A stretch of 64,000 nt of DNA from an uncultured Rhodospirillaceae bacterium (GCA_964643045.1 CAZXSC010000001.1:66296-130295), one strand, 5' to 3'. Numbered from the stretch's first letter, positions 3,495 through 58,046 are shown. Notes: generated by a model from the sequence alone, not told the origin. Program-made: numbers and translations.

Positions 3495-3568
3495 TTGGCC
3501 TTTCCTTCTTTGTCAGCATATATAAAATAGGTAAGTTTTCAGTGAGTTTACCAACGATAAGCACGAGT

Positions 3569-4732
3569 TTAAATTTCAAAGGCTTTTTTAATATTTATGA
3601 CAACCCGCTCAACATCCTCGTCCGTCATGGCTGCGAATAGGGGTAGACTTAGGCATCCATTATAATAATGCTCGGCTGCAGAAAAAACACCCGGTTCATA
3701 TTTGTGAGATCGAGCATAATAGGGCTGCAGGTGAATTGGAATATAATGGACTTGAGTGTTGATATTATTTTTAGATAAGTTTTGCATGAAATCGGCGCGG
3801 TTTATTTCTAAATTTTCCCAATCAATATGGATTAAATAAAGATGCAGACCAGATCTATTTCTTTGGGCCGGGCTCGAGTGAAATATTCTGAAAGGCAATG
3901 ATGAAAAAGCCTCATCATAGTGGAGGGCAATCTCTCTCCGCCGGCAGCAAAATTTTTCAAGTTTATTTAGTTGGGATAATCCCAAGGCAGCCTGTATATC
4001 ACTTAACCGATAGTTAAATCCAAGAGATTGTTGTTCATAAAACCACGGGGGAAAATTTCCTCGTTGATCACTGTTAGCCTCAAAATACCCAGGGTCACGT
4101 TCAATACCATGATTCCGCAGAAGGCGGAGGCGATGGGCATAATTGTCATTATTAGTTACAACCAAACCTCCCTCGCCGGTTGTGATGGGTTTGATTGCGT
4201 GAAATGAGAAAACCGACATATCCGAGTATTTACCACAGCCAACAGGGCTTCCATCATCATATGTTCCTCCCAACGCGTGGCATGCATCTTCAATTATGCA
4301 GCTCGACTGGGACATTTCTTTGATTTCTCGGCTATTTGATGCTAAGCCAGCGAAATGCACCGGAATAACAATATCTATGTTTTTTTTGGTTAGAACCTGC
4401 TCCAGTTTAGTGGTCGCTATGCCAAGTGTTTTTGGGTCAATATCGGTTAAATGAGCTTCCATCCCGGCATATAATAAGCAATTTGCTGAAGCAACAAATG
4501 ATAATGTTGATGTTATACCGCGACCTTCCGGCGATACTCCGGCAGCTAAACATGCCAGGTGTAACCCTGCTGTGCCATTACTCACAGCAACCGCATGTTT
4601 TGCGCCAACGCGTTCTGCGATGGCATCTTCGAATTTTTTTACCGTGGGACCTTGAGTAAGATAATCACTATGTAAAACCTCTATGACCGCGGTGACGTCG
4701 TCTTCATCTATGCTTTGTTTGCTGTAATTCAT
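3569..4732 (-). CDS. pseC: DegT/DnrJ/EryC1-family PLP aminotransferase, PseC type
   Basis: 387 aa with a PLP-lysine region SFHAIKPITTGEGG. The N-terminal IDEDDVTAVIEVLHSDYLTQGP is typical of PseC. The start codon directly abuts the pseF stop. Confidence 0.85.
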   Translation of the reverse strand: MNYSKQSIDEDDVTAVIEVLHSDYLTQGPTVKKFEDAIAERVGAKHAVAVSNGTAGLHLACLAAGVSPEGRGITSTLSFVASANCLLYAGMEAHLTDIDPKTLGIATTKLEQVLTKKNIDIVIPVHFAGLASNSREIKEMSQSSCIIEDACHALGGTYDDGSPVGCGKYSDMSVFSFHAIKPITTGEGGLVVTNNDNYAHRLRLLRNHGIERDPGYFEANSDQRGNFPPWFYEQQSLGFNYRLSDIQAALGLSQLNKLEKFCCRRREIALHYDEAFSSLPFRIFHSSPAQRNRSGLHLYLIHIDWENLEINRADFMQNLSKNNINTQVHYIPIHLQPYYARSHKYEPGVFSAAEHYYNGCLSLPLFAAMTDEDVERVVINIKKAFEI

Positions 4733-22702: not shown

Positions 22703-22786
22703 CAATTTCTATTCGATTTTGGTAAATTATTTGATGATGTTTGTAGCAAGGACGTGTATCAATCTATTCGAGTGTTTCTTTTACAG

Positions 22787-22803
22787 CGTTCAAGCTTTGA
22801 ACA
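22787..22803. promoter_or_regulatory. Palindromic site cGTTC-N7-GAACA (copy 4) in the gap upstream of the carbamoyltransferase gene
   Basis: The sequence read directly is cGTTCaagctttGAACA. It is also an extended palindrome GTTCAA-gct-TTGAAC. Confidence 0.3.
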
Positions 22804-22856
22804 AAAGTGTTAGTGATTATAAATATTTTTTCCGCAATTCTTAGCTTACTTCAACT

Positions 22857-34145: not shown

Positions 34146-35159
34146 TTAAGCAGCGCTGATCTTTTTCATTGTGCGGACATTGAAGTAATTATCATTATCG
34201 AAGCTATCAGGTAATTTGCCGTCACGGAATGCCTTGCATAATCCGCGAATAGCATCTTCTACACTATATTGAGGCTTGAAGCCAAGAACTTCAGTAACCT
34301 TGTCTGAGTTGATATGATATGAACGCAAATCATCTGACGATGTTACTTCTATATTAATTTCGTCTTTATCCGGAAATTCTTCGGCCACGACCCGTTTGAC
34401 CGTTTTGGCAATTTTCATGATACTCATGTTCTCGTAGCCACAATTGAAAATCTCATTAGCGATTTTTTCATCTGGTGCTTCAAGCAGAACTTTACAAAGA
34501 TCAGCATAATCCTGAATATGGAGGTTTGGGCGCAACTGACTGCCGCCAAAGACAGTGATATTGCCTTTATTGACGGCAAGATTGGTCAAAATATTGACCG
34601 ATACATCAAGCCTTTGACGCGGCCCGTAGCCACATACGGTTGCCGGCCGATAAACCACACCGACAAAGTTTTCATCAGTGTGATTGAACAGGATCGGCTC
34701 ACACGCCCCTTTGTATTTGTTGTAAAGCGTCAGCGGTACCAATGGGTGGTCTTCTTTAACATTAGGTTCTTCACTAATACCGTAAACTGAACTTGATGAC
34801 GCATAAATAAAGCGTTTAACACCGGCTTTCTTTGCAGCGATAACAATTGGTTCAAAAGCATTCATGTTTACGGTCGTCGAAAGGTTTTCGTCTAATTCAA
34901 AGCTGGCATCATTTGAAATACAAGCCAGATGGAGAACTGCGTCTACACCCGCCATAAGTGGTTCTAGCTTCCCAATATCTCTGATATCGCCTTGAATAAC
35001 CGTCAAATTTGGATTGTCCAAGGGTAAAAAATTAGATCCATAATACTGGATGTCATAAACGGTTACGTTGTAACCCATGTCCAACATTTGTGGCACTAAC
35101 ACGCTACCACAGTATCCTGCTCCGCCGGTCACAAGAACATGATTAAATTTAGGTGTCAT
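34146..35159 (-). CDS. NAD-dependent nucleotide-sugar epimerase/dehydratase
   Basis: VLVTGGAGYCGSVLVPQML and YNKYK (YxxxK); 337 aa. Confidence 0.8.
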   Translation of the reverse strand: MTPKFNHVLVTGGAGYCGSVLVPQMLDMGYNVTVYDIQYYGSNFLPLDNPNLTVIQGDIRDIGKLEPLMAGVDAVLHLACISNDASFELDENLSTTVNMNAFEPIVIAAKKAGVKRFIYASSSSVYGISEEPNVKEDHPLVPLTLYNKYKGACEPILFNHTDENFVGVVYRPATVCGYGPRQRLDVSVNILTNLAVNKGNITVFGGSQLRPNLHIQDYADLCKVLLEAPDEKIANEIFNCGYENMSIMKIAKTVKRVVAEEFPDKDEINIEVTSSDDLRSYHINSDKVTEVLGFKPQYSVEDAIRGLCKAFRDGKLPDSFDNDNYFNVRTMKKISAA

Positions 35160-47648: not shown

Positions 47649-47794
47649 TAACTTGGATCTATTCTAAATAAGGGATAATTTACCCCAACTGTTAAGATAT
47701 TAAATGGGTATGATGGGAGATTTTTACGCAGAAAATTTATTTGGAAGATAAGACTAGTAAACCTAGAAAGGGTCAAATATGACATGATAAAAAC

Positions 47795-48292
47795 TTAAAT
47801 ATTTATTGCTGATGAAGGTAGACGCACGCGCACGGGACGCCCCATTAGGTTAAGCAAAATAACTACGCGTTCGTCATCATTCTGACATTCGAAAATGCCG
47901 ATGTGTTCGTTAAAAGCACCAGCAGTGATTTGTACTTGGTCCCCAGGTTTAATATTTAATTGTCTATTTAGAGAAACAATACCTTCATCGTCTTCCCGAG
48001 CTCGAATTTCATCTAGTAATTCTGTTGGAACTGGAGTTGGCAAAGCGCCAAATTGGACGAGTTTTTTCACGCCGATTGTAGAATTAATGCAGGACCAGTT
48101 TTCCTTATTGAGGTCAAATTCAACGAATAAATATTTTGGGAAAAGAGGTGCCAAGACACTATCTATGCGGCGTGCATGGCGTCTATGTTTTTTATATTGT
48201 GGTAAATATACTTTGAATTTCTGTTGTTTTAAATTAAGAAGAGCTTTGGGCTCTTCCCGTGACTTGGTGTTAACAACGAACCATTGTTTCAT
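47795..48292 (-). CDS. rfaH: RfaH-like specialised NusG paralog (operon-specific transcription antiterminator)
   Basis: 165 aa. WFVVNTKSREE, PLFPKYLFVEFD, VQFGALPTPVP and the KOW segment PGDQVQITAGAFNEHIGIF, ILLNL closely parallel my recollection of E. coli RfaH (PLFPNYLFVEFD, VRFGASPAIVP, PGDKVIITEGAFEGFQAIF, LLLNL). Confidence 0.75.
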   Translation of the reverse strand: MKQWFVVNTKSREEPKALLNLKQQKFKVYLPQYKKHRRHARRIDSVLAPLFPKYLFVEFDLNKENWSCINSTIGVKKLVQFGALPTPVPTELLDEIRAREDDEGIVSLNRQLNIKPGDQVQITAGAFNEHIGIFECQNDDERVVILLNLMGRPVRVRLPSSAINI

Positions 48293-48978
48293 TTTATGTA
48301 GTTCAAATTAGAGGTGTTTTCGGATTCATATTTTGCTTGATCCCGAACAATACCTAGTATGGGAGCTGTTAGAATCTGGTCACGCGGAAAAAATTGCACT
48401 GCTTTATCAAATGTTTCCTGCGGTTTTCTCATATCGGTTATAAGAAGAACGTGTAGGGGATTTAGCTCGGCGAGTTTACCCACAACAGGTAAATCCATAT
48501 AAGTGGATGTTGAGGAAGCGGCCTCGGCATCAATAATGCCAGCCAATTTAATTTTTAGTTCGACCGCACTCAAGATAGTTATTTCAGTCAGATCACTTTT
48601 TCCTACTAGGGCGATTCGGTTCCATCCTTTTTCATTACAACTTTGTAAAAGTTCTACTGATTGGGCTCGTGCAAGCCGAAAGAAATCAAATGATTGTTTT
48701 AGGTATTCTGCTGTAAGCCGGCCTTTTTCTGCAAATCCACGGGGTGTAAGATAATAAGCATATCTATTCGAGGGTATTTGTTGTACCTTGATAAGGCCTT
48801 TTTTGGCGCATCTTTTCAGATACGAATTGGTTAGGCCAAGGGCCACACCTAATTCGGCAGATAAAGAGCGCTGAGTAATTGTGCTATTTTCTCCAACAAC
48901 GTCGAGCAAGTTAAGTGTAATCCGCTCATCATTCTTTAAATTTTCATGTGATGGGTTTGAATCTGGCACCGGTTTCAT
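48289..48978 (-). CDS. Winged-helix (MarR-like, EPS-associated type) transcriptional regulator with a C-terminal Rossmann-like domain
   Basis: ITQRSLSAELGVALGLTNSYLKRCAKKGLIKVQQIPSNRYAYYLTPRGFAEKGRL is the wHTH. The C-terminus reads IALVGKSDLTEI...LPVVGKLAEL...VLLITD. It is the first gene after the control region, with GAGG upstream of the ATG. Confidence 0.65.
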   Translation of the reverse strand: MKPVPDSNPSHENLKNDERITLNLLDVVGENSTITQRSLSAELGVALGLTNSYLKRCAKKGLIKVQQIPSNRYAYYLTPRGFAEKGRLTAEYLKQSFDFFRLARAQSVELLQSCNEKGWNRIALVGKSDLTEITILSAVELKIKLAGIIDAEAASSTSTYMDLPVVGKLAELNPLHVLLITDMRKPQETFDKAVQFFPRDQILTAPILGIVRDQAKYESENTSNLNYIK

Positions 48979-49098
48979 ATTGCCTCAAGAAATTAATTGT
49001 GATGTCTGCTGATAGATTTTTTGGCAGATACTTTTCGCTATTGTCACTATTCTCAGTAGAGATTTCCAATCAGATCTTTAATACGATTTTTAATTAGG

Positions 49099-49110
49099 CA
49101 CGCTACCGCA
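49099..49110 (-). promoter_or_regulatory. ops-like (JUMPstart core) RfaH recruitment element
   Basis: The minus strand reads TGCGGTAGCGTG, matching 11 of 12 bases of the E. coli ops consensus GGCGGTAGCGTG. It lies in the non-template strand of the leader, about 120 nt upstream of the first gene. Confidence 0.5.
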
Positions 49111-49257
49111 CTTCGGGTGAAAAGCAGAATTCCAAAGCACTAATTAAACACCCATTTTTGTTCAAACATTGCGCTTAAAGCGTCTATCGCCCAAAGGAGG
49201 ACGGTTTTCTCCAGATGTATATTTCTACATCCTATTTGTGGACAACTCACAATCATG

Positions 49258-49274
49258 TGTTCGGCCGTTGAACA
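49258..49274. promoter_or_regulatory. Palindromic operator-like site TGTTC-N7-GAACA (copy 1)
   Basis: The sequence read directly is TGTTCggccgttGAACA. Confidence 0.4.
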
Positions 49275-49384
49275 ATGCCTTTATTTACCAGAAAAAACTC
49301 TAAAATTATGGTTAGTTTTAGGTTTTTCGGTAGAAAAATCCCTAGATCTCAACGTAAATAAATTTTTTACGGTTTAAATAAGGT

Positions 49385-49401
49385 TGTTCATAGAATGAAC
49401 A
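49385..49401. promoter_or_regulatory. Palindromic operator-like site TGTTC-N7-GAACA (copy 2, overlaps the predicted -10)
   Basis: The sequence read directly is TGTTCatagaatGAACA. Confidence 0.4.
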
Positions 49402-49426
49402 TACAGTTTTGGCTAGATGCTGTCAA
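49398..49426 (-). promoter_or_regulatory. Candidate sigma70-type promoter for the leftward operon
   Basis: The minus strand reads TTGACA (49426-49421), then a 17-nt spacer, then TATGTT (49403-49398). This is a prediction by eye only. Confidence 0.3.
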
Positions 49427-49429
49427 TAT

Positions 49430-49446
49430 TGTTCGTAATGTGAACG
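49430..49446. promoter_or_regulatory. Palindromic operator-like site TGTTC-N7-GAACg (copy 3, just upstream of the predicted -35)
   Basis: The sequence read directly is TGTTCgtaatgtGAACg, with one mismatch at the last base. Confidence 0.35.
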
Positions 49447-49574
49447 CGTGGCTTGTTTTAACAAATTGGGTCAATATTAATTGAATTTAATGATATGTTT
49501 GACGCTAAATGCCATTGGAGATTTGTAGTTGAATTTATTCTATCAGATTATTTATTTTGATCGGGATAAACCGG

Positions 49575-54968: not shown

Positions 54969-55602
54969 CTACTCGTCTCTTTATTTTTAAGCTTTCTTAT
55001 GCTTTAGGGATTCTTATTCAATACAAGAAAAGTTTCATTTTATTCATCAGCATGACAACTCTCAATATATGCTACATTTAGTAACTTTTTGCAAATTAGC
55101 TTTGAGCGTAAATTAGAATTATGAGCTCAAAAGGTGTTACGTCAGATACGGATTTAATGTTGGTTGGCTTTTTTAGTTATTTTTAAAAGGTTTGCGTTGC
55201 TTAATGCGTTTAAATAGACGCGTCGTAGTTAGTCGTAATTTAGTATATTTGGATAGTGGAACAGGATCAACTAATGCCAATTTTGAATCATAAGAATTAG
55301 GGAAAGTTATCTAATGAACAAGTCAATTGATTAAAAATCAAATATCTGGGACATCGAGAACACATGGTATTTGAGGGCTAATCAAGAAAGAGTGGCAACG
55401 TTGATACAAACTATTGTAGTTCAGATCAATCATACAAAGGGAACTATTACCGCCGATATACTTCTCAGAGCCTAGTATATCATAAAGTTTTTGATAAATA
55501 TTGTCGTTTCTCATAGAAACGAATAGAGTTGATTATCGCCTAAGAATTTCTGACTAATTATAGCGGTCTTGTTTAATGGTTAACTGAGGAATAATTATAG
55601 TG

Positions 55603-56115
55603 ATGAGTAGAGGTGGCATTAAAAATTATAATGTAATAGTGCAAAAAGTTGATAATAAATTTCATCTTACTATTGCAGAATTAATGATTTCAGTTTCTGG
55701 TGAGGATCTTGTTGAGGTTTATCACGGGCTTGAGTCCAAAAAGGAAGAAGCCCTTCGGTCGATGAAAGAATCTGGCATGGATTACATAATACCTTCCCCC
55801 AATATACACCACAATGTTAGTCTACCAACAGGTCGACGTTTGTTTTGGGATGAAATTCTCATGTTTCTCGCAAAATTGACGATTCTCGGATTAATAATTG
55901 CACTTCTTGGCGGTATTTTTTATCAATTCGGTAAGCCCTTGATAACTGGATTTACACATAAAATAAAAATGATACCAAATAAAATGACAAAAATACCACA
56001 AGATAAAGTTATCGATGCCGCTGAAAAAACAAAAGAGTTAATAAAAAAGTTCTCACCAATATTAGATGAGATCAAACCTTTGTACGACCCTGAACCGGCG
56101 AATAGAAAAAAATAG
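55603..56115 (+). CDS. Hypothetical single-pass membrane protein (170 aa)
   Basis: The ATG at 55603 follows GAGGA. There is one hydrophobic helix, ILMFLAKLTILGLIIALLGGIFY. The N-terminal approximately 60 aa has a beta-alpha pattern faintly like HicB/UPF0150. Confidence 0.5.
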   Translation: MSRGGIKNYNVIVQKVDNKFHLTIAELMISVSGEDLVEVYHGLESKKEEALRSMKESGMDYIIPSPNIHHNVSLPTGRRLFWDEILMFLAKLTILGLIIALLGGIFYQFGKPLITGFTHKIKMIPNKMTKIPQDKVIDAAEKTKELIKKFSPILDEIKPLYDPEPANRKK

Positions 56116-56165
56116 GAAAGCTGTTTGTGGCTTTTAGGCCCCTTTTTTGAGTAATAATTTAATAA

Positions 56166-58046
56166 ATGGTTCGATTCAATTTACACCCTAGTATCAGGTT
56201 GGATGGAATACCAACCAACTCCTACAATTTACGTGTGAGGGTTTTGGTTTTTATAGCTTTTTTATTTTTCACCTTGGTTTTAGCTGGGATAACGCAAATT
56301 CCCGTTTTGGGGATTTGGGAAAGTTTTACATTTTTTCACAATTTTTCACCTGTTGATGCCCATCTGTCATTTAGGATTAGTGCTCGAGCCAATATTGCGG
56401 GTCAAGGTTATGCGTTGCTTGATATTTCAAGAATGATATCCGATTGGTTTGGATGGTCCATAATGACGTTTAGGCTGCCTTCATTGGTCATCGGCTGGAT
56501 TGGTTTGGGTTTCTTCTTCACAATAGCCGCGCGTATAGTTGGATTCTTGCCCGCTTTGTTGGCGTCGATTCTTCTTGCCACCAATGAAGCTTTTGTTGTT
56601 TTTCAAAGCCAACTAATTGTTTCAATGGTAACTTTCACCCTTTGCTTAATTTTAGTTGAGCGTATTCAGGCACTTGAAGCAAATTCACGGATCAATCAAA
56701 ATGTTATATTGTTGGGCATTTTTACCGCAATAACGGGCACATATTATTCGATGGGGCGTTTCTTTGCACTATTTTTAGTTTCTTTTTTTATTCTAAAATT
56801 CATATATTTAGGCTTTAAGAATTTACCTAGAACATTTGCGATAAAAGAATCAAAAACATTAATTAGCACGCTGTTGCTGTCCGTAATAATTTCGTTTTTC
56901 ATACTATCGCCATTAAACGTAATAGATTTTTTGAGCTTTCCTTCATTTTTTTTCCCAACAAACAGTGAAGTTCATTTTGTATCAGCTGGCTTACTGGATA
57001 CGATTTTTACAAACATAATACTTTTGTTAAAATCACTCACTTATTTAGATGGTTTGCGGCAATCAGCTGATTCGACCGAGTCCCTCGCAAACGTAAATAT
57101 TACGCTGATTTTTCCTTTGTTTTTGCCATTTGTGATTTTGGGGATGATAAAATCCCTGGCCAATAATTATAAGGTTTATTATGGCACATATGCCCCTTAT
57201 GGATTGATAAATTTTCTATTCATAATTACGCTGGTTCCTCCTCTTTTTTCAGCGATTCATAATGGAATACCAACATTCTCGACATTTAGGACTTTTAACA
57301 TTTTAATACCTGCTTATCTTTATGGTGCTATAGGAATTAACGAGCTAATGAATAAATATTCTAAATATAATGGAGTAGTTTTGGCTTCAATATTGCTATT
57401 ATTCTTTGGCCAGATATATTTGCTTGTTTCGGATCGATTAAGGTTTTCAAATGCGGTTTCAGAATTTGTTTTTGAATTACCGTTAACAAATACAAACACA
57501 AATACTTTGTTTCAAACCTCTGAAATTACTAAAGCTCGGGCAAGGAACAGGAAGTTCATTGCTGATCAGGTGATATATAAAAAATATGCTGAGAAATTCG
57601 TAAAAAATATTTCGGATAAGGAAACCACACTTTTCACGATAGACCTTGGTGAACTATCAAAAAATTCCCTATATCCTCATGGACTGCATTACCTGAAAAA
57701 TAAAAACTACCATTCAACTTTTCTCGCCTTTTATGCATCGGATTTAGGGCTTAATTTAGCATACGTTCAAGCCATTGACGAAAACAGTAGCCAACCAATA
57801 TATGGTAGTGGTTACCGCGGAAAAAAACGCATATTTCCAGCAGAATTTGAGCTTAGAGGTATTCGTCCAGTATACAAAAACCCTGAGAATTTAGAATTTC
57901 AACTAAGGTCAACTGGTCGTGGAAAAATTAAAGCTTATCTTTCGACTACTAAAGAGGAATTAAATTGGACCCTGAAATATTTAGAAAATAAAGGAGAGGC
58001 ATTTAGTGTCGTAAAGATATCTTATCAGAATGGTCCTGATAGATGA
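56166..58046 (+). CDS. Polytopic membrane protein (626 aa) with a C-terminal soluble domain; possible GT-C-type glycosyltransferase or polymerase
   Basis: There are at least 10 hydrophobic segments in residues 25-430, then a hydrophilic approximately 190-aa tail. No motif recognised with certainty. Confidence 0.45.
   Translation: MVRFNLHPSIRLDGIPTNSYNLRVRVLVFIAFLFFTLVLAGITQIPVLGIWESFTFFHNFSPVDAHLSFRISARANIAGQGYALLDISRMISDWFGWSIMTFRLPSLVIGWIGLGFFFTIAARIVGFLPALLASILLATNEAFVVFQSQLIVSMVTFTLCLILVERIQALEANSRINQNVILLGIFTAITGTYYSMGRFFALFLVSFFILKFIYLGFKNLPRTFAIKESKTLISTLLLSVIISFFILSPLNVIDFLSFPSFFFPTNSEVHFVSAGLLDTIFTNIILLLKSLTYLDGLRQSADSTESLANVNITLIFPLFLPFVILGMIKSLANNYKVYYGTYAPYGLINFLFIITLVPPLFSAIHNGIPTFSTFRTFNILIPAYLYGAIGINELMNKYSKYNGVVLASILLLFFGQIYLLVSDRLRFSNAVSEFVFELPLTNTNTNTLFQTSEITKARARNRKFIADQVIYKKYAEKFVKNISDKETTLFTIDLGELSKNSLYPHGLHYLKNKNYHSTFLAFYASDLGLNLAYVQAIDENSSQPIYGSGYRGKKRIFPAEFELRGIRPVYKNPENLEFQLRSTGRGKIKAYLSTTKEELNWTLKYLENKGEAFSVVKISYQNGPDR

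Follow-up and report, generated by a model that had tools for sequence, protein, structure and literature searches.

The ops element of E. coli RfaH is a 12-nt signal in non-template DNA, located in the JUMPStart region of LPS, capsule, hemolysin and tra operons. A near-consensus copy of this element is found at the head of a glycan (sugar-coat) gene cluster of an uncultured marine alphaproteobacterium (Rhodospirillaceae). The cluster occupies the minus strand of the window, by which we mean the whole 64-kb stretch of DNA that was analysed, and the second gene of the operon encodes an RfaH-like protein. Does this site serve to recruit the factor that the operon itself encodes, and does the arrangement imply positive autoregulation, as a preliminary description of the locus proposed?

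The operon and its leader

The features of the operon, apart from the ops region itself, are listed here in the direction of transcription.

49431-49445, minus strand: operator-like palindrome O1, GTTCACATTACGAAC (GTTC-N7-GAAC), directly upstream of the -35 hexamer
49398-49426, minus strand: predicted sigma-70-type promoter, TTGACA (49426-49421), 17 nt, TATGTT (49403-49398)
49386-49400, minus strand: O2, a second operator-like palindrome, GTTCATTCTATGAAC, that overlaps both the -10 hexamer and the predicted start
49259-49273, minus strand: third GTTC-N7-GAAC palindrome, GTTCAACGGCCGAAC, in the long leader, about 120 nt past the predicted start
48289-48978, minus strand: MarR-like regulator gene, 229 aa, encoding a winged helix, a long helix and a C-terminal alpha/beta domain
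47795-48292, minus strand: gene for an RfaH-like NusG paralog, 165 aa, the second gene of the pair
47649-47794, minus strand: spacer that separates the rfaH-like gene from the first biosynthetic gene, the site of hairpin-ops in relatives
459-47648, minus strand: glycan biosynthesis array, 45 ORFs of 150 aa or longer, among them genes for GT2, nucleotidyltransferase, dehydratases and PseB/PseC-type enzymes
22788-22802, no strand assigned: another GTTC-N7-GAAC palindrome, within an intergenic gap of 151 nt (22706-22856)

From 48978 down to 459, 47 minus-strand ORFs of at least 150 aa were found and none on the plus strand, with a largest gap of 220 nt, and down to 2496 every gap is 151 nt or shorter. 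The long co-directional array of the preliminary description is thus borne out. The two regulator genes overlap by 4 nt (ATGA, comprising the ATG of the second and the stop of the first), and the gene directly after the rfaH-like gene encodes a GT2 glycosyltransferase. The array is presumed to be the target of the elongation factor. Counts of terminator-like hairpins across positions 1-60000 of the window, which take in the whole array, equal the shuffle expectation and single out no specific antitermination target.

The locus was compared with 12 other distinct loci that carry both a MarR-like winged-helix gene and an rfaH-like gene, most of them retrieved by exact-protein look-ups. The RfaH-like proteins of these relatives are 45-78% identical to the window protein. 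Conservation of the ops region was assessed in alignment A2 (13 loci, the window and the 12 relatives), and protein residue frequencies were counted over 91 family members. A metagenome scan with a single protein returned 14 loci, four of them in the family of the window's rfaH-like gene, and a genome scan for orthologous loci among species representatives, a set without the window's own genome, yielded just three loci, all distant and from deltaproteobacterial MAGs. A flanking acetyl-CoA synthetase shares 83-87% identity with proteins from MAGs of Rhodospirillales and Rhodospirillaceae. Over 5,825 bases, leader included, the ENA scaffold is matched exactly by a separately made Logan assembly (L005); the unusual position of ops described below is no assembly artefact.

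Every family locus has the MarR-like gene immediately upstream of the rfaH-like gene. The winged helix of its product was confirmed by Pfam HTH_24 (36.2 bits, threshold 21.9), and the AlphaFold2 model has a pLDDT of 90. Fold searches gave solid structural matches (MarR family) for the winged helix only, while for the C-terminal domain they gave only low-TM resemblances (winged helix plus Rossmann-type methyltransferases, CggR) and indicated no ligand. The protein resembles TIGR04176 (MarR_EPS) in having an N-terminal winged helix of this type and in being encoded in an exopolysaccharide locus. However, its score of 63.6 bits, over residues 18-106 only, does not reach the cut-off of 88, and to a profile of 105 positions it adds a C-terminal alpha/beta domain of about 110 residues.

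The placement of ops in the leader of the operon, also proposed beforehand, agrees with the promoter prediction. The best minus-strand match of the region (10/12) lies about 280 nt upstream of ops, with a predicted transcription start near 49391, and the same 17-nt spacing between TTGACA or TTGACT and TATGTT or TACGTT is kept in relatives (L008, L012, L014, L025, L039 and L042), the spacer sequence itself being variable. The surrounding palindromes are strongly overrepresented: GTTC-N7-GAAC occurs at five sites in the window against 0.74 expected, and five were reached in 0 of 100 shuffles. Wherever the upstream region of a relative is available, two to three copies are present at the corresponding place ahead of the winged-helix gene, and in L023 a comparable operator and promoter precede its hairpin-ops element. 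O2, covering the -10 hexamer and the start, would occupy a typical position for autorepression, and the MarR-like protein is presumed to bind the GTTC-N7-GAAC sites. The third palindrome is in the approximately 380-nt promoter-to-start-codon segment that is absent from the relatives. The palindrome at 22788-22802, perhaps a part of the system, may mark an internal regulated promoter.

A conserved hairpin joined to ops

The ops region itself comprises four overlapping features.

49097-49140, minus strand: whole hairpin-ops element, 44 nt, scored by covariance model R1 at 55.1 bits (E ~1e-13)
49108-49140, minus strand: hairpin 5' of and overlapping ops, with arms GUGCUUUGG (49140-49132) and CCGAAGUGC (49116-49108)
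49115-49120, minus strand: invariant TCACCC, mostly in the hairpin loop and at the arm edge
49099-49110, minus strand: ops element TGCGGTAGCGTG, with the core GCGGTAGC invariant in the 13-locus alignment A2

The near-consensus ops first noted at 49110-49099 was confirmed as TGCGGTAGCGTG, which differs from GGCGGTAGCGTG by a single mismatch at position 1 and is the sole match with at most one mismatch on either strand of the window. It lies on the coding strand, in the 596-nt gap upstream of the regulator gene pair. Its 8-nt core, GCGGTAGC, recurs in every one of the eight ops sites of E. coli (Saba et al. 2024, PMC11685472). Matches with at most one mismatch are expected 0.09 times per window, and at least one was found somewhere in 9 of 100 window shuffles, which would allow for a chance match; the motif count alone is weak evidence. 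Position and conservation, in contrast, are strong evidence. Conservation of the 12-mer in orthologous loci had been set beforehand as a test, and beside the orthologous gene pair the hairpin-ops element recurs in 12 further distinct loci, each time on the coding strand and with an invariant core. This conservation together with the flanking structure, reflected in the E value of the covariance model, rules out a chance match to the ops consensus for all practical purposes, the odds in its favour being negligible.

The element consists of a covarying hairpin, the invariant TCACCC and the invariant GCGGTAGC, with the 12-mer at its 3' end, and the sequences flanking the two invariant blocks are variable in A2. 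R1 was built from seven cleanly aligned copies and was then used for re-alignment; MAFFT alignments of the element misplace the 5' arm where bulges occur, and RNAalifold on a MAFFT alignment gave 6 pairs only. Across the 64-kb window, R1 gave no second match better than E 0.75. A 12-mer at 35100-35111 with two mismatches to ops, inside coding sequence and with an R1 E of 0.91, was rejected.

Of the cells in the alignment of 12 loci fitted by the model, 94.1% are paired; sliding the partner columns lowers this to 27-50%. At three pairs both sides have changed. The covariation score is 0.333 versus 0.209 in shuffles, and 0 of 500 shuffles attain 0.333. Three of the nine pairs in the window hairpin are G-U, and such pairs indicate, from the sequence at least, a stem that forms at the RNA level. 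With a folding energy of -8.5 kcal/mol, the window hairpin is the weakest of 13, and 24% of the sequences obtained by shuffling the 5' part fold as stably; the hairpin may be in decay since a rearrangement. The 3' arm ends at ops position 3. From the end of the stem to ops position 11 there are 8-9 nt, a distance appropriate for a pause hairpin, and hairpins of that kind have a precedent in Bacteroides, at the ops-like sites that UpxY factors use (Saba et al. 2024, PMC11685472). Several relatives carry a short second hairpin ahead of the main hairpin.

Since the stem covaries and uses G-U pairs, which implies selection at the RNA level, the element might instead be a JUMPstart-type RNA motif (with a role in processing, stability or attenuation) or the site of another factor, in either case independent of the RfaH-like protein. 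The second hairpin of several relatives and a weak match to Rfam JUMPstart RF01707 (19.2 bits, E 0.74) are consistent with this. However, that score falls well short of the gathering threshold (35), and the consensus letters matched are mostly those of the ops portion. An RNA motif of this kind would also leave unexplained the linkage to an rfaH-like gene at every locus and the identity of the core to that of the ops DNA hairpin, and we consider it distinctly unlikely. The snoRNA matches in the Rfam scan were discarded as noise.

The invariance of TCACCC, despite its location mostly in the hairpin loop and at the arm edge, could also mean that TCACCC-N5-GCGGTAGC acts as duplex DNA, a roadblock or operator to which the MarR-like protein or some other DNA-binding protein attaches, and TTCAC does resemble the operator half-site GTTCA. 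Yet the element is without the GTTC-N7-GAAC dyad that is kept at the promoters, and recognition of upstream duplex by a NusG paralog, for which UpxY provides a precedent (PMC11685472), explains the same invariance. An operator role for this segment is thus highly improbable.

Position of the element and properties of the factor

In all 12 relatives the element is downstream of the stop codon of the rfaH-like gene, at 58-87 nt past the stop in 10 of them, whereas in the window alone it is upstream of both regulator genes. The window spacer at 47649-47794 contains no ops and no R1 match at E up to 1, and it includes a weak terminator-like hairpin at 47686-47672. With the exception of the element position, the gene order GT2, NTP-transferase, dehydratase is the same in L012 and L042. 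Within 3 kb of homologs on cultured alphaproteobacterial plasmids (36-41% identity), no family-type hairpin-ops element was found.

With ops ahead of the regulator genes, the window factor would have to act in trans, in later transcription rounds, whereas an ops past the rfaH-like stop codon, as in the relatives, would allow a fresh factor to load in cis on its own polymerase. Because ops precedes the regulator genes only in the window, the positive autoregulation proposed in the preliminary description is plausible for the window but confined to its lineage, and it is no design principle of the family.

The factor itself had been described as a 165-aa NusG paralog that tracks E. coli RfaH, and the segments on which this was based were reproduced in an alignment to PDB 2oug, which is gapless over residues 1-102 (for example, PLFPKYLFVEFD versus PLFPNYLFVEFD). 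Identity to E. coli-type RfaH is about 30-33%. Pfam NusG NGN matches residues 2-97 with 78.6 bits, superposition of the NGN domain on RfaH gives an rmsd of 1.5-2.5 A, and Foldseek matches include both RfaH and NusG chains. The two-domain NGN and KOW architecture of RfaH (~160 aa, with the clamp-helix contacts F56 and Y54) is present. In the AlphaFold2 model (pLDDT 87.8), strands occupy residues 119-159 without a C-terminal helical hairpin, and the C-terminal KOW domain is predicted to be all-beta (beta-barrel). RfaH is the best-scoring NusG-type model among the NCBIfam profiles (134.6 for RfaH TIGR01955, 80.3 for UpxY, 53.4 for NusG and 50.9 for LoaP), although the scores are below the RfaH cut-offs (134.6 versus 144.5 for TIGR01955, 104.4 versus 124 for NF006534), as they are for UpxY NF033644 (80.3 versus 100). 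Thus, the expected grouping with RfaH rather than with housekeeping NusG holds for the profile scores, which favour RfaH over both NusG and UpxY, but not for the ops-contacting residues, three of four of which are lost, which by the preliminary description's own test counts in part against it.

In E. coli RfaH, the side chains that contact ops are K10, H20, R23 and R73 (Zuber et al. 2018). The window protein keeps one of these (K10), H20 being replaced by N, R23 by Q and R73 by I. Over the 91 family members, F56 and Y54 are conserved in 100%, Q24 in 98% and K10 in 78%; position 20 is N in 81% and H in 16%, 77% have R23, and at position 73 I, A, L and F occur but R does not. Position 48 is A in the window and in 85% of the family and is never E, and E48A makes E. 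coli RfaH independent of ops. Because three of the four ops-contacting side chains are replaced and A48 is of the E48A type, the window factor is unlikely to read ops in exactly the manner of E. coli RfaH. Autoinhibition of RfaH involves docking of an alpha-helical C-terminal hairpin on the NGN domain, with E48, I93 and F130 as determinants; in the window protein these are incomplete, with L93 and F130 compatible and E48 absent, and because its C-terminal domain is modelled as beta by AlphaFold2, the factor is probably not autoinhibited. A48 and the modelled beta domain together suggest a constitutively active factor for which ops is perhaps unneeded. At the Rho-binding loop, where NusG I164-F165-G166 is replaced in RfaH by L145-I146-N147, the window protein has L-M-G, between NusG and RfaH, and the G is found in 90 of 91 family members.

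Such a monomorphic factor could load in cis during translation without any use of ops. The element would then be a hairpin-stabilised pause that buys time for loading, and a rearrangement would have left the window copy as a remnant that is without function or simply tolerated. This recruitment mode is the one proposed by Tabilo-Agurto et al. 2026 in their preprint (PMC13015549), and it accommodates A48 with its known effect on ops dependence, the beta C-terminal domain, the changed contact residues, the location of the element shortly past the stop codon in 10 of 12 relatives, and the degraded window hairpin with its three G-U pairs. A mere pause, however, needs neither an invariant GCGGTAGC identical to that of E. 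coli nor an invariant TCACCC. In the window both are intact, and the element, at 55 bits, ranks fifth of 12 by R1 score, which argues against decay. The one ops variant, GCGGCAGC, occurs in L019, whose protein has Q10, H20 and R73, and this coincidence hints at direct read-out. Together, these observations make ops-independent loading rather unlikely.

We therefore favour, with a probability of roughly 0.65, a reading in which 49140-49097 would work as a composite site, serving both for pausing and for recruitment of the RfaH-like factor, whose gene lies about 800 nt further downstream and belongs to the same transcription unit. Under this reading we infer the following course of pausing, binding, antitermination, repression and feedback. 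Transcription would start at the TTGACA-17-TATGTT promoter, which is probably repressed by the MarR-like protein via the flanking GTTC-N7-GAAC sites. About 280 nt into the leader, the RNA hairpin and the ops consensus pause would hold polymerase at ops position 11. The non-template GCGGTAGC could then fold into a small DNA hairpin to be recognised by the NGN domain of the factor, and TCACCC in the upstream duplex may add specificity. Once loaded, the factor would exclude NusG and suppress pausing and Rho-dependent polarity over the ~48 kb array. The window circuit would thus consist of a trans-acting factor with a positive loop on its own gene, countered by MarR-type autorepression.

A broader scheme can be put forward only tentatively. 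The hairpin-ops of the relatives, 58-87 nt past the rfaH-like stop codon, could be a cis self-loading device at which polymerase would pause shortly after the factor's gene and which places ribosome-released factor onto its own polymerase, with ops read specifically by an altered head (N20 and I73 in place of H20 and R73), and the window could be a rearrangement of this device to trans positive feedback gated by a ligand-sensing MarR-like repressor. We regard this extension as possible but doubtful.

Comparison with known systems

To our knowledge, target-finding by specialised NusG paralogs has been worked out in detail for no more than two cases: E. coli RfaH and, since 2024, Bacteroides UpxY. 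The window site shares with E. coli RfaH/ops the same core GCGGTAGC, located on the coding strand of a 5' leader that heads a long polysaccharide operon, and the protein shares the NGN and KOW domains and keeps K10, Q24, Y54, F56, F130 and R138. In contrast, the rfaH gene of E. coli is monocistronic and unlinked to its targets, and its product is autoinhibited, with an alpha-helical C-terminal domain held partly by E48-R138. The window factor is encoded in the operon, has A48 and a modelled beta C-terminal domain, is without H20, R23 and R73, and carries NWSC instead of the HTTT motif and a NusG-like G at position 147. The window site differs from E. coli ops by an extra covarying RNA hairpin and the invariant TCACCC. 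Rfam JUMPstart RF01707 similarly has a hairpin followed by GGCGGTAGCGTG at the 3' end, upstream of polysaccharide genes, but its stem and loop sequences are unrelated to those of the window element, as the score below threshold reflects.

The Bacteroides UpxY/UpxZ system with opsX (PMC11685472) resembles the window in having a recruitment site in the leader before its own paralog gene, at the head of a capsule-type operon. Its multipartite site of ~40 nt, in which an RNA pause hairpin is combined with conserved upstream DNA and a GCG..AGC non-template hairpin, is also similar to the window element. However, the window protein scores better as RfaH than as UpxY, its paralog gene is the second rather than the first of the operon, and its partner is a MarR-like DNA-binding protein, not the anti-factor UpxZ. 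Furthermore, no invertible promoter was seen in the window, and in the relatives the site follows the gene.

RfaH homologs within or beside envelope-polysaccharide operons have been described, including a cluster, CL4, with an HTH regulator (Wang et al. 2020, PMC7593976), and a predicted non-autoinhibited, cis-acting RfaH clade is reported by Tabilo-Agurto et al. 2026 (preprint, PMC13015549). The arrangement that the preliminary description saw as a hybrid is thus one with precedents: the module type, an ops-linked and self-encoded RfaH-like factor, is already known, and what sets the window apart from every relative examined is ops ahead of the factor gene. The monomorphic cis-encoded RfaH homologs and clusters CL2-CL8 share with the window family a beta-barrel C-terminal domain by AlphaFold2, a long envelope-glycan operon, an HTH neighbour (especially in CL4) and an alphaproteobacterial host. 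By the operon definition of PMC13015549 (inside or within 1 kb of a co-directional operon of more than 5 kb with gaps of at most 200 bp), the window gene is operon-encoded, and AlphaFold2 predicts for its product the active beta C-terminal state of that clade. Selectivity is attributed in those studies to cis recruitment and ops is not invoked; the main text of PMC13015549 and the available part of PMC7593976 describe no conserved ops, pause hairpin or operator sites at such loci. What distinguishes the window family from the homologs described there is the strict conservation, next to the gene, of an ops core of the E. coli type.

The family thus offers a direct test of the model in which ancestral non-autoinhibited RfaH homologs were selective by proximity, without ops. 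Its proteins look non-autoinhibited, with A48 and a predicted beta C-terminal domain, yet they are encoded beside a conserved ops within a UpxY-like composite site, and two natural configurations are available, with the site after the gene in the relatives and before the gene in the window. The 44-nt model and GTTC-N7-GAAC provide searchable markers for regulated glycan islands of uncultured marine Alphaproteobacteria. If the element is read specifically, ops recognition would predate both the autoinhibition and the R73 of E. coli RfaH, and the reading head of these factors would be more plastic than thought.

Conserved hairpin-ops element

The preliminary description of this DNA placed ops, the 12-nt non-template-strand recruitment signal for RfaH, in the leader of an operon encoding its own RfaH-like antiterminator. 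The upstream site was borne out as a genuine ops-type element that is conserved in 12 relatives; the interpretation given to it holds in part. The main features are listed here.

49445-49431 (-): first GTTC-N7-GAAC palindrome
49426-49398 (-): promoter match TTGACA-17-TATGTT
49400-49386 (-): second palindrome
49273-49259: third palindrome
49140-49097 (-): 44-nt composite element (hairpin, TCACCC and ops)
49110-49099 (-): ops-like 12-mer, TGCGGTAGCGTG
48289-48978 (-): MarR-like winged-helix ORF, 229 aa
47795-48292 (-): rfaH-like ORF, 165 aa

The 12-mer matches the E. coli ops consensus GGCGGTAGCGTG everywhere but at position 1 and includes the core GCGGTAGC, which Saba et al. 2024 (PMC11685472) report in every one of the eight ops sites of E. 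coli. It lies on the coding strand of a 596-nt intergenic gap (48979-49574), 120 nt 5' of the ATG of the winged-helix ORF. The window contains a single match with one mismatch or fewer (0.09 expected), but since 9 of 100 shuffles contain at least one such match, the motif count by itself is weak evidence.

Homologs of the RfaH-like protein, 43-78% identical and largely of marine metagenomic origin, were located on their contigs. The MarR-like gene lies directly 5' of the rfaH-like gene in every family locus with sufficient flanking DNA. When the element was aligned across 13 distinct loci (the window and 12 others), an invariant TCACCC, five variable bases and an invariant GCGGTAGC were observed. 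In each of the 13 copies, the sequence 5' of ops folds into a hairpin, the 3' arm of which ends at ops position 2-3.

A covariance model was built from seven cleanly aligned copies. The window copy scores 55.1 bits (E about 1e-13), 11 other copies are recovered at E <=1e-5, including a variant in comparison locus L019 missed by the plain pattern, and no second comparable match was found in the window. In the model-fitted alignment, a small sample fitted to the structure, 94.1% of cells form a standard pair (27-50% with partner columns slid), three pairs are changed on both sides (reached by 2 of 500 shuffles), and the covariation score is 0.333, which none of the 500 shuffles attained (shuffle value 0.209). 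The window stem, in which GUGCUUUGG pairs with CCGAAGUGC, is the weakest of the set (-8.5 kcal/mol), and three G-U wobbles keep its pairing, which points to selection at the RNA level. With 19.2 bits from the Rfam JUMPstart model, whose threshold is 35, the element is not a curated JUMPstart member.

A two-mismatch ops-like sequence, TGTGGTAGCGTG, is present at 35100-35111 (-), 48 nt into ORF 34146-35159. It was rejected as a second ops at a chance-level covariance-model score (10.9 bits, E 0.91). Four relatives (L008, L014, L023 and L039) carry a second short GC-rich hairpin in the 10-17 nt directly 5' of the pause hairpin, for example GGC-UCAA-GCC followed by a short U-run in L039. This hairpin, absent from the window, might act in the relatives as an attenuator after the rfaH-like gene.

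Regulatory region and gene order

The winged-helix ORF (HTH_24) overlaps the start of the rfaH-like ORF with its stop as ATGA. Its nearest NCBIfam model is the EPS-associated MarR TIGR04176 (63.6 bits, under the cut-off of 88), and it has more than 3,000 homologs. AlphaFold2 (pLDDT 90) predicts a winged helix, a long helix and, with confidence, a C-terminal alpha/beta domain (about residues 120-215) that matches nothing in Pfam or NCBIfam. Solid structural relatives were found only for the winged helix; other fold matches are low-TM (winged helix plus Rossmann-type methyltransferases, CggR). Ligand sensing by the predicted C-terminal domain is a guess.

The TTGACA-17-TATGTT sequence is the best minus-strand promoter match. 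Low-GC relatives keep the same hexamers and the same 17-nt spacing around unrelated spacer sequence, a phylogenetic footprint. Two GTTC-N7-GAAC palindromes flank the promoter, the second lying over its -10 hexamer and predicted start site. The window holds five such palindromes where 0.74 are expected (five reached by 0 of 100 shuffles), and relatives carry two or three copies directly 5' of the winged-helix gene. These sites are putative operators through which the MarR-like protein would repress its own promoter. A fourth palindrome, GTTCAAGCTTTGAAC, is located at 22788-22802, about 15 nt 3' of a TATAAT, within the only sizeable intergenic gap mid-array (22706-22856), and may mark an internal promoter under the same regulator. 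In the high-GC relative L023, an extra operator and a TTGACG promoter (3502-3708) lie between the rfaH-like gene and the hairpin-ops; the biosynthetic operon of L023 may therefore be under a regulated promoter of its own.

Of the ORFs of at least 150 aa between 48978 and 459, all 47 lie on the minus strand, with gaps of <=220 nt; their products are glycosyltransferases and nucleotide-sugar enzymes. Two plus-strand ORFs (171 and 626 aa; 55600-58046), without an NCBIfam match, break the otherwise minus-strand glycan island. The window belongs to a 206,783-bp metagenomic scaffold, and an independent assembly is identical across 5.8 kb including the leader. An acetyl-CoA synthetase encoded in the flank shares 83-87% identity with Rhodospirillales and Rhodospirillaceae MAG proteins, which makes the host an uncultured marine alphaproteobacterium.

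In all 12 relatives, the hairpin-ops follows the rfaH-like stop and precedes the first biosynthetic gene. Counted from this stop, ops position 11 lies 58-87 nt away in 10 loci, 125 nt away in L019 and 196 nt away in L023, where the extra operator and promoter intervene. This downstream position is shared by the closest relative, L039 (78% identity), and by L012 and L042, whose gene order (GT2, nucleotidyltransferase, dehydratase) is that of the window. No hairpin-ops was found in the window's rfaH-to-GT2 spacer (47794-47649). Here a segment of ~380 nt, containing the third palindrome and the hairpin-ops, separates the promoter from the winged-helix start codon, 3' of the remnant of a short ancestral 5' UTR (GTTGAGATCTAGGGATTTTT, versus GTTGATGACTAGGGATCATTT directly before the ATG in relative L008). 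The difference in order indicates that, in the window lineage, either the loading site was moved ahead of the two regulator genes or these genes were moved downstream of it.

At the spacer where relatives have the hairpin-ops, the window has a weak terminator-like hairpin, GGGGTAAATTATCCC, followed by TTATTT (47672-47686, -). In two deltaproteobacterial MAG loci (L002, 4808-4819; L031, 3193-3204), GGCGGTAGCAT lies 200-310 nt 3' of an rfaH-like gene and before sugar genes; these rfaH-like genes are 35-38% identical, and their upstream neighbour is Ogt/MGMT-like rather than the winged-helix gene. On a Sphingobium baderi plasmid (NZ_CP128178, L045), AGCGGTAGCGAG (1716-1727, coding strand; covariance-model score only 10.3 bits) lies 1.17 kb 5' of an rfaH-like gene; a sugar transferase gene and glmS come next, and the ops-before-factor order is that of the window.

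The RfaH-like factor

The second gene does encode, as described earlier, a 165-aa NusG paralog that tracks RfaH (Pfam NGN, 78.6 bits). Its best NCBIfam match is RfaH TIGR01955, though under the cut-off (134.6 bits versus 144.5), followed by UpxY (80.3), NusG (53.4) and LoaP (50.9). Among PDB sequences, E. coli RfaH is closest to it (E 4.5e-17, gapless over residues 1-102). According to Zuber et al. 2018 (PMC5995543), the K10, H20, R23 and R73 side chains touch ops G5 and T6, and K10A, H20A, R73A and R16A are strongly defective.

Residues of the window protein and 91 family members, in E. coli RfaH numbering.
K10: window K; family K 78%
R16: window K; family K 82%
H20: window N; family N 81%, H 16%
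R23: window Q; family R 77%
Q24: window Q; family Q 98%
R73: window I; family never R
F56 (RNA polymerase binding): window F; family invariant
H65-T68 (HTTT motif): window NWSC; family W66 in 90/91
E48 (autoinhibition): window A; family A 85%, never E
N147 (Rho-loop position): window G; family G 90/91, as NusG

Most ops-contact and autoinhibition residues depart from RfaH. Autoinhibition requires E48, and E48A E. coli RfaH is ops-independent (PMC13015549). AlphaFold2 (pLDDT 87.8) predicts a beta-barrel KOW domain, not an alpha hairpin, and the closest whole-chain structural match, bar an integrative NusG model, is fully recruited, active-state RfaH (8phk).

The main rival reading is a constitutively active factor that is blind to ops, with the element only a pause and, in the window, a relic. 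Three points weigh against it: the core exactly matches the E. coli core that is read base-specifically, the window copy is intact, and the sole ops variant found, GCGGCAGC in L019 (3589-3629; T6 to C, hairpin and TCACCC intact), coincides with a protein (P0086) having Q10, H20 and R73 in place of the usual K10, N20 and I73. This single case may represent a co-change of reading head and site. The reading favoured here is an authentic ops-type site coupled to an RfaH-like factor that the operon itself encodes.

Proposed mechanism and comparison with known systems

From the observed sequence, conservation, covariation, linkage and promoter/operator footprint, we infer the following steps. Transcription from the MarR-controlled promoter would run into the composite site. 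There the ops consensus pause would hold the polymerase together with the newly made RNA hairpin, which ends 8-9 nt short of ops position 11. The RfaH-like NGN domain would then be recruited by the GCGGTAGC hairpin exposed on the non-template strand, perhaps with a contribution from the invariant TCACCC of the upstream duplex, and the loaded factor would promote elongation through the array that is free of pauses and resists Rho. Since terminator-like hairpins are as frequent in the array as chance predicts, intrinsic terminators do not stand out as a target.

The geometry of the relatives suits cis loading of fresh factor onto the polymerase that transcribed its gene, echoing the ancestral mechanism proposed by Belogurov et al. 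2009 (as cited in PMC13015549). In the window, factor would necessarily come from earlier transcripts, so that the gene would feed back positively on itself and be restrained by MarR-type autorepression. The positive autoregulation deduced in the preliminary description from ops lying ahead of its own factor thus agrees with the order in the window, but would be peculiar to this lineage.

The multipartite site resembles Bacteroides opsX, with its pause hairpin, upstream duplex DNA and GCG..AGC hairpin (Saba et al. 2024, PMC11685472). The protein profile matches predicted monomorphic RfaH homologs, which are encoded in or beside long LPS-type operons and show constitutive activity in reporters (Tabilo-Agurto et al. 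2026, PMC13015549). It also matches clusters with envelope-biogenesis neighbours, among which CL4 is associated with an HTH regulator, in a survey placing 18% of RfaH genes in Alphaproteobacteria (Wang et al. 2020, PMC7593976). The cis-encoded arrangement, earlier taken for a hybrid, is already in the literature through the latter two studies. To our knowledge, judged against these papers, what is new is the E. coli-type ops core conserved beside predicted non-autoinhibited RfaH homologs, the composite hairpin, TCACCC and ops architecture, its stereotyped placement shortly 3' of the stop codon of the factor gene, the MarR-like partner and its putative operators, and the inverted order, ops before factor, in the window.
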